Part shown: piece after piece, positions 54,687-54,726 of the stretch
Layout of the letters: every line of letters begins with the position of its first letter
Position numbering within the stretch: position 1 is the first letter of the stretch
Source: Escherichia coli
GTDB lineage: Bacteria > Pseudomonadota > Gammaproteobacteria > Enterobacterales > Enterobacteriaceae
Assembly: GCF_030013205.1 (NCBI RefSeq)
Contig: NZ_CP122648.1
Direction: 5' to 3' (one strand)
Length of the DNA: 64,000 bases
Position numbers and translations under genes: made by a program
The notes under the pieces: model-generated
What the model saw: only the letters and a program-made list of their open reading frames with translations
Told to the model about the DNA's origin: nothing
Databases searched by the model: none

Positions 54687-54726
54687 ATATATTCATATAT
54701 TCATATATTTATATATTTATATATAT
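54687..54726. repeat. Tandem repeat, 5 copies of 8-mer ATATATTN, spanning the stop codon of the yjgL-like gene
   Basis: ATATATTC ATATATTC ATATATTT ATATATTT ATATATTG read directly from sequence. Confidence 0.85.

Follow-up and report, generated by a model that had tools for sequence, protein, structure and literature searches.

The locus and its host gene

The stretch analysed here (the window) comprises 64,000 nucleotides of an Escherichia coli contig, NZ_CP122648.1. The part under study carries, in this order, valS, yjgN, yjgM, rraB, argI, an AT-rich minus-strand gene convergent with argI, and then tabA, bdcR and bdcA. Both its position between argI and tabA-bdcR-bdcA and its similarity to K-12 YjgL assign the AT-rich gene to the yjgL/icaR family: the protein aligns with YjgL along its length, and 37 to 43 of every 50 residues are identical in the blocks of the N-terminus. 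In Pfam only a sub-threshold match to the SopA-central domain was obtained, the same as is reported for YjgL (PMC9241512); NCBIfam, PADLOC and PDB sequence searches with the protein gave nothing meaningful. The same paper describes the product of icaR, as the gene is called in Shigella, as a substrate of the type III secretion apparatus. For E. coli, orthologs of icaR are known to vary in length and to have lost their C-terminus to IS elements (PMC9241512; PMC9769918). The gene and its immediate features are arranged as follows.

56202-56988, minus strand: 5' portion of the gene, start ATG at 56988
55434-56201, minus strand: IS1, 768 bp, inside the gene
55426-55433 and 56202-56209: 8-bp target duplication of IS1, CATCATTA
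54701-55433, minus strand: 3' portion of the gene, downstream of IS1
54824-54830: T7 homopolymer within the gene, at a distance of ~100 bp from the array described below
54650-54662 and 54738-54750: direct repeat of 13 bp, TTCCGGAGGATTT, with one copy on either side of the array
54553-54584: 10-bp G+C-rich hairpin between convergent argI and yjgL, outside the array

An earlier reading of the sequence alone (the sequence-only reading) had described the gene as IS-disrupted, and so it is: the 768-bp IS1 with its 8-bp target duplication splits a gene of the yjgL/icaR type. Among 5,426 complete E. coli genomes, the IS1 junction is shared by one only, that of the porcine strain ETEC4079 (Belgium), where the same insertion is annotated. 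Independent IS1 insertions were seen nearby in other strains, within the gene itself in MIN12 and within yjgN in Res13-Lact-EB12-05, while 30EVA2, with its IS1 insertion, has lost the whole stretch that reaches from the gene to pyrL. This AT-rich locus looks like a recurrent target of IS1.

Two further lesions affect the same end of the gene. Each copy of the 13-bp repeat encodes an NPPE motif. What lies between the copies, the array included, is deleted in roughly one genome in four (10 of 40 evenly spaced rows). This deletion, 88 bp relative to the window, breaks the reading frame and has the appearance of another, independent lesion of the gene end, due to slippage or recombination. At the homopolymer, A65EC, 23AR1101 and 2013C-3277 have T8 instead of T7, which shifts the frame earlier; the CDS annotated in 23AR1101 and 2013C-3277 has 469 aa.

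Length variation also arises farther upstream. Residues ~185-260 of K-12 YjgL form a long run of imperfect (Q/E)ELNN(S/P) hexapeptides with an 18-bp period in the DNA; the run is short in the allele of strain N10 and missing from the window allele (around 56400). This in-frame hexapeptide repeat explains much of the variation between proteins of 531, 550 and 604 aa.

The neighbouring genes show peculiarities of their own. At the argI stop region (54526-54540) a 5-bp tandem duplication, TAAAT TAAAT, stands in place of the usual stop, and in consequence ArgI has 337 aa here, ending in ...LSKLNN, versus 334 aa in K-12 and most strains. The yjgN gene (51011-52234, minus strand) is split by an internal stop into ORFs 51776-52234 and 51011-51763; it is a PGAP pseudogene in related ETEC and O26 genomes and is intact in K-12 and many others. 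The hairpin between argI and yjgL, which a simple scan missed because its loop has 12 nt, gave RNA folds of -19.2 and -22.1 kcal/mol (z -4.5 and -4.7) and is, on these predictions, probably a terminator shared by both genes.

A variable octanucleotide array

Near the 3' end of the gene, positions 54687-54726 read ATATATTC ATATATTC ATATATTT ATATATTT ATATATAT. The sequence-only reading had seen here an 8-bp tandem repeat in five copies, lying across the stop codon of the disrupted gene. The repeat is real, as sequence, Tandem Repeats Finder (TRF) and shuffling agree, with a correction to the count: four copies fit ATATATTN and the fifth is a partial or degenerate one. The bounds of the block that actually varies were set by comparison with other genomes of identical flanks, in which it holds 1 to 10 units.

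54689-54720: variable array, four units of ATATTYAT (ATATTCAT, ATATTCAT, ATATTTAT, ATATTTAT, abbreviated C, C, T, T)
54721-54726: partial unit ATATAT at the gene-proximal edge, the same in all alleles, which sets the reading phase into the array
54677-54688: degenerate repeat-like left flank TTCATTATTAAT, counted by TRF as additional copies

On the sense (minus) strand the unit reads ATRAATAT. TRF reported positions 54677-54724 with period 8, 6.1 copies, 90% matches and a score of 68, the second-best array of the window. The strongest is a REP/BIME-like tandem array of 96-bp units between pepA and holC (47311-47606; 3.1 copies, 93% matches, TRF score 511). In 100 dinucleotide shuffles of the window the 32-nt pattern of the octamer array is expected 0 times. 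Against the local AT-rich background (32.7% GC), the period-8 self-match reaches 30 of 32 positions, while the top value among 500 shuffles, taken over periods 4-12, was 24. Short head-to-tail units are therefore present here in excess of chance.

Next, we examined the locus in the 5,426 complete genomes. A 301-bp query matched 4,809 of them, and the match lengths differed mainly by ~8, 16 or 24 bp. Sequences fetched from 28 genomes contained every copy number (n, the number of whole units) from 1 to 10 between identical immediate flanks; the left-flank version TTCATTATTAAT is present in all expanded alleles. The variation between strains is thus one of whole units with conserved flanks, and the invariant repeat number that would have spoken against the sequence-only reading was not seen in the assemblies. 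Arrays are composed of the two unit variants in various orders: CCTT (the window), CCTTT, CCTCT, CCTC, CCC, CCCC, CCCTCT, CCCTTCT, CCCTTTTC, CCCCCTTTC, CCCCCTTTTC and ACCCCCCCTC. Genomes of each class were counted with synthetic queries, one per copy number (n=1-9), at E<=1e-100, a cutoff that retained almost only alignments without an 8-bp gap; a few rows leaked from neighbouring copy numbers, so that the following counts are approximate.

n=2: ~45 genomes
n=3: ~79 genomes
n=4: ~136 genomes
n=5: ~201 genomes (commonest)
n=6: ~110 genomes
n=7: ~48 genomes
n=8: ~20 genomes
n=9: ~19 genomes
n=10: at least 2 genomes

An expanded array (n of 2 or more) is accordingly found in ~660 genomes, about 12% of the complete ones, and ~615 of these have three units or more. 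Single-unit alleles on other haplotypes amount to ~1,800 genomes, as estimated from evenly spaced rows of the 301-bp search; K-12 and O157 have a diverged yjgL with no octamer repeat. Carriers of expanded arrays include O26:H11 and O111:H11 STEC, one O103 strain and porcine ETEC. Among the O26, O111 and O103 strains listed with a 12-unit query, whose two-piece alignments are not ordered by copy number, n=6-8 is common.

Comparison of near-identical genomes revealed that the array differs where almost nothing else does. The window and ETEC4079 align over 19,441 bp without a mismatch, and their only gap, of 8 bp, is the repeat (n=4, CCTT, versus n=5, CCTTT); the window thus probably derives from a near relative of this ETEC clone. 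Of two strains lacking IS1, ETEC4067 has n=5 and ETEC1748 n=4, and over 20.9 kb they are distinguished by 1 SNP and one unit. All four combinations of IS1 presence or absence with n=4 or n=5 occur, which requires at least two independent unit changes within this clone. On the SNP haplotype of the O26:H11 strain 11368, itself n=6, sharers carry n=1, 6, 7, 8, 9 and 10. The n=1 strain, 93_0495, lies five units but only 3 SNPs in 20.3 kb away from 11368, on the same haplotype and with the same nearby IS621 insertion. Arrays with T-variant units are present in the ETEC haplogroup as well as in the O26 haplogroup. The ancestor common to the two had therefore probably expanded before they diverged, and the single unit of 93_0495 would then most simply be a secondary collapse by five units. 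Judged by comparison of assemblies, which is the sense in which we call it fast, the array changes faster than its surroundings. Single and multiple whole-unit mutations are known from other E. coli VNTRs at 4e-5 to 2e-3 per generation (PMC3777172).

Could such differences be produced by errors of sequencing or assembly in a tract that is AT-rich and of low complexity? Long reads underlie many of the assemblies, and the comparisons were made on assemblies only. All differences, however, are exact multiples of 8 bp with clean unit patterns, each class is represented by up to hundreds of genomes, and n=6 is already present in 11368 (NC_013361), an early reference genome. Two independent assemblies of 2013C-3277 agree with each other, as do the pairs 96_1414B/P and WG5/WG5::PA8. 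With duplicate assemblies in agreement and differences in whole units, we rejected artefact as the source of the variation; it is extremely improbable.

We also considered that copy number might act through DNA or RNA, by altering the spacing or structure of the 3' UTR before the argI/yjgL terminator, by binding H-NS, or by supplying TATA promoter-like hexamers. The array is indeed very AT-rich, lies 117 bp from the strong hairpin common to both convergent genes, and is overlapped by one weak promoter-like match (54700-54727, 9 of 12 positions). Promoter-like sites at the repeat are nevertheless no more frequent than in shuffles (3 versus 3.7 expected), and folding of the array as a DNA hairpin or cruciform gave no stable structure (z -0.3 and -0.1). 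The strong hairpin is situated beyond the array and stays the same in every allele, the whole segment is deleted in roughly one genome in four, and the K-12 and O157 alleles do without the repeat. A role of this kind is therefore very unlikely. Two narrower candidates were rejected: a promoter or terminator created by the repeat, for which nothing rose above chance, and a DNA hairpin as the driver of array instability, for which there was no fold signal.

Reading frame and protein product

The minus-strand ORF 54701-55447 ends in ...GKINIYKYINI, which agrees with the terminal KINIYKYINI given by the sequence-only reading. The repeat does not, however, mark the natural 3' end of the gene as that reading implied: the ancestral ORF extends 108 nt farther.

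54703-54701, minus strand: TGA stop inside the third unit in sense order, ending a 503-aa product
54593-54700, minus strand: severed 3' remnant of the ancestral ORF, encoding IYEYINNEQLGKLNPPENLRIAIEKFGWKKKTITA and ending with TAA at 54595-54593

When IS1 and one copy of the target duplication were removed in silico, an ORF of 503 codons resulted, followed by 35 codons between the TGA and the TAA. With four units (+24 nt) the remnant of the window lies in frame behind the TGA. Pseudo-CDSs annotated by PGAP in related genomes reach exactly the coordinate of the TAA and are flagged "internal stop" or "frameshifted". In strain 93_0495 the remnant is an intact part of the ORF, which encodes a 531-aa protein ending in ...INIYEYINNEQLGKLNPPENLRIAIEKFGWKKKTITA. 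Conservation of the C-terminal tail of ~30 residues extends to K-12 YjgL and to the diverged allele of N10.

Conceptual translation with the flanks of the window gives three outcomes. A single unit yields the full-length protein of 531 aa, with a tail of 46 residues counted from MMKIL...; two units yield a frameshifted tail of 26 residues; and any number from 3 to 10 yields a product of 503 aa that stops within the third unit and has a tail of 18 residues, ...INIY(K/E)Y(I/M)NI. The annotation corresponds: the RefSeq CDS has 1512 nt at n=4, 6, 7, 8, 9 and 10, WP_001074121.1 is common to n=6 and n=7, and WP_001445283.1 to n=8 and n=9. The reason lies in the unit itself. As 8 and 3 have no common factor and one phase of the unit is TRA, any frame meets TAA or TGA by the third unit. 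All alleles with three or more units thus stop at the same codon, and from the four units of the window, gain or loss of one leaves the product unchanged. The expectation that slippage would alter the C-terminus and the position of the stop consequently holds for the steps between one, two and three or more units, and fails among the alleles with three or more, which share the same 503-aa product.

These results bear directly on the suggestion that the tract is a potential contingency locus, at which non-triplet slippage would turn one C-terminal form of a host-interaction protein into another and back, and so provide pre-adapted variants. Several observations fit. The tract is part of an ORF, and its unit has a length not divisible by three; copy number differs between near-identical strains; the 30 residues lost on expansion are conserved between diverged alleles; and 93_0495, n=1 with an intact 531-aa ORF among relatives of n=6-10, is one apparent reversion. 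The gene itself, whose Shigella ortholog IcaR is secreted as a type III substrate (PMC9241512), belongs to a class typical for such loci. Yet full length is attained only at n=1, and ~615 of the ~660 expanded genomes encode one and the same 503-aa product, so that ordinary slippage by single units is silent. A change of one unit does not generally switch the state of the product, only n=1, n=2 and n of 3 or more being different, and there is no periodic return to ON: the ORF is restored by nothing short of full collapse to a single unit, seen once. The units are few and impure, and the commonest arrays (n=4-6) are several units away from the only alternative state. Moreover, of the 531 codons only the final 28-30, at the 3' end, are touched by the array; a change to about 5% of the protein makes no on/off switch, and in the window the gene that would be controlled is split by IS1 (55434-56201). 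The proposal was therefore not borne out, and we regard a contingency locus as very unlikely. To our knowledge, there is no established mechanism of natural repeat-mediated phase variation in E. coli; Torres-Cruz and van der Woude reportedly obtained it in 2003 with engineered tracts only.

Origin of the array and comparison with known systems

The locus is likely a slippage-prone octanucleotide VNTR in the 3'-terminal coding region of one yjgL/icaR allele family, and probably a neutral one. We picture its history as follows. The ancestor would have had a single ATATTCAT in an AT-rich context that was already repeat-like, and would have encoded the 531-aa protein. Duplication of this unit may have begun the array, which would afterwards have grown and shrunk by whole units in replication, through slipped-strand mispairing. 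A second unit would have frameshifted the tail, and from the third unit on the protein would always stop at the same place (503 aa), so that expansion presumably cut off the conserved C-terminus of 28-30 residues. Distal units would then lie behind the stop, where their number could drift with the product unaffected. In the window, with four units, the gene is also split by IS1, and the repeat would accordingly be without functional consequence there.

Elsewhere the truncation is perhaps not strictly neutral. The 1.5-kb AT-rich ORF upstream of the array is open in most of the expanded alleles sampled; the truncated 503-aa protein could therefore be functional and selected, and 93_0495 suggests that restoration of the long form is possible and might itself be favoured by selection. 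Carried further, this would make the array an evolutionary truncation toggle of a protein resembling a secretion substrate, the long and short forms alternating under selection. More than one unit would remove the conserved C-terminus LNPPENLRIAIExFGW, and rare multi-unit collapse, as in 93_0495, would restore it. Were this so, the locus would be kept mutable to that end, and its highly variable copy number would be the visible side effect. We consider such a toggle very unlikely. The array is best read as an ordinary fast-mutating repeat and not as a genetic switch.

As such, it is an apparently undescribed hypervariable marker, carried by ~12% of the complete E. coli genomes. In the searchable literature, where 12 of 16 rotations of the octamer were looked for, we found no description of yjgL/icaR as a VNTR or MLVA locus. 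The array tells apart isolates with no other difference over 20 kb and might thus be of use in typing; it could also show up as a confusing indel in SNP/indel analyses of outbreaks. It accounts for the inconsistent annotation of the gene, here an intact "hypothetical protein" of 503 aa and there a "frameshifted / internal stop" pseudogene of a "DNA-binding protein". Beside the direct-repeat deletion and the homopolymer slip, expansion of the array is a third route to C-terminal truncation of IcaR/YjgL that is independent of IS elements. More generally, a repeat of non-triplet units within an ORF need not act as a phase-variation switch; what decides is the stop-codon content of the unit.

Among known systems, the array resembles the VNTRs used in E. 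coli MLVA (O157-10, other O157 loci and the generic CVN loci). These, too, consist of short head-to-tail units between conserved flanks and show single or multiple whole-unit changes between close isolates, and some of them lie in ORFs (PMC3777172; PMC3877011). The yjgL/icaR array differs in its 8-bp, AT-rich unit with two sequence variants (C and T) and in its confinement to one allele family of a highly polymorphic gene, again ~12% of complete genomes.

Contingency loci in Moxon's sense, as in Haemophilus, Neisseria and Campylobacter, are tetra- or pentanucleotide or homopolymer tracts in ORFs. They are placed near the 5' end or in promoters, their ON frame is free of stops, and they are ON again every three units. 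The yjgL/icaR repeat shares with them a non-triplet unit, a place inside a frame-bearing ORF and a gene plausibly related to the host. Unlike them, it lies 28-30 codons from the 3' end, holds a stop in every frame and permits the full-length protein at n=1 only.

A parallel in outcome is the truncation of IcaR/YjgL by IS elements, which affects the same gene and likewise leaves a C-terminally shortened protein; the window allele, too, has an IS1 in the gene. In the accessible part of PMC9241512, IS-truncated forms are given for Shigella flexneri M90T and for E. coli W, UMN026 and E2348/69, and that part makes no mention of a repeat. Unlike those cases, all of them attributed there to IS insertion, the shortening described here is brought about by expansion of an octanucleotide internal to the gene.
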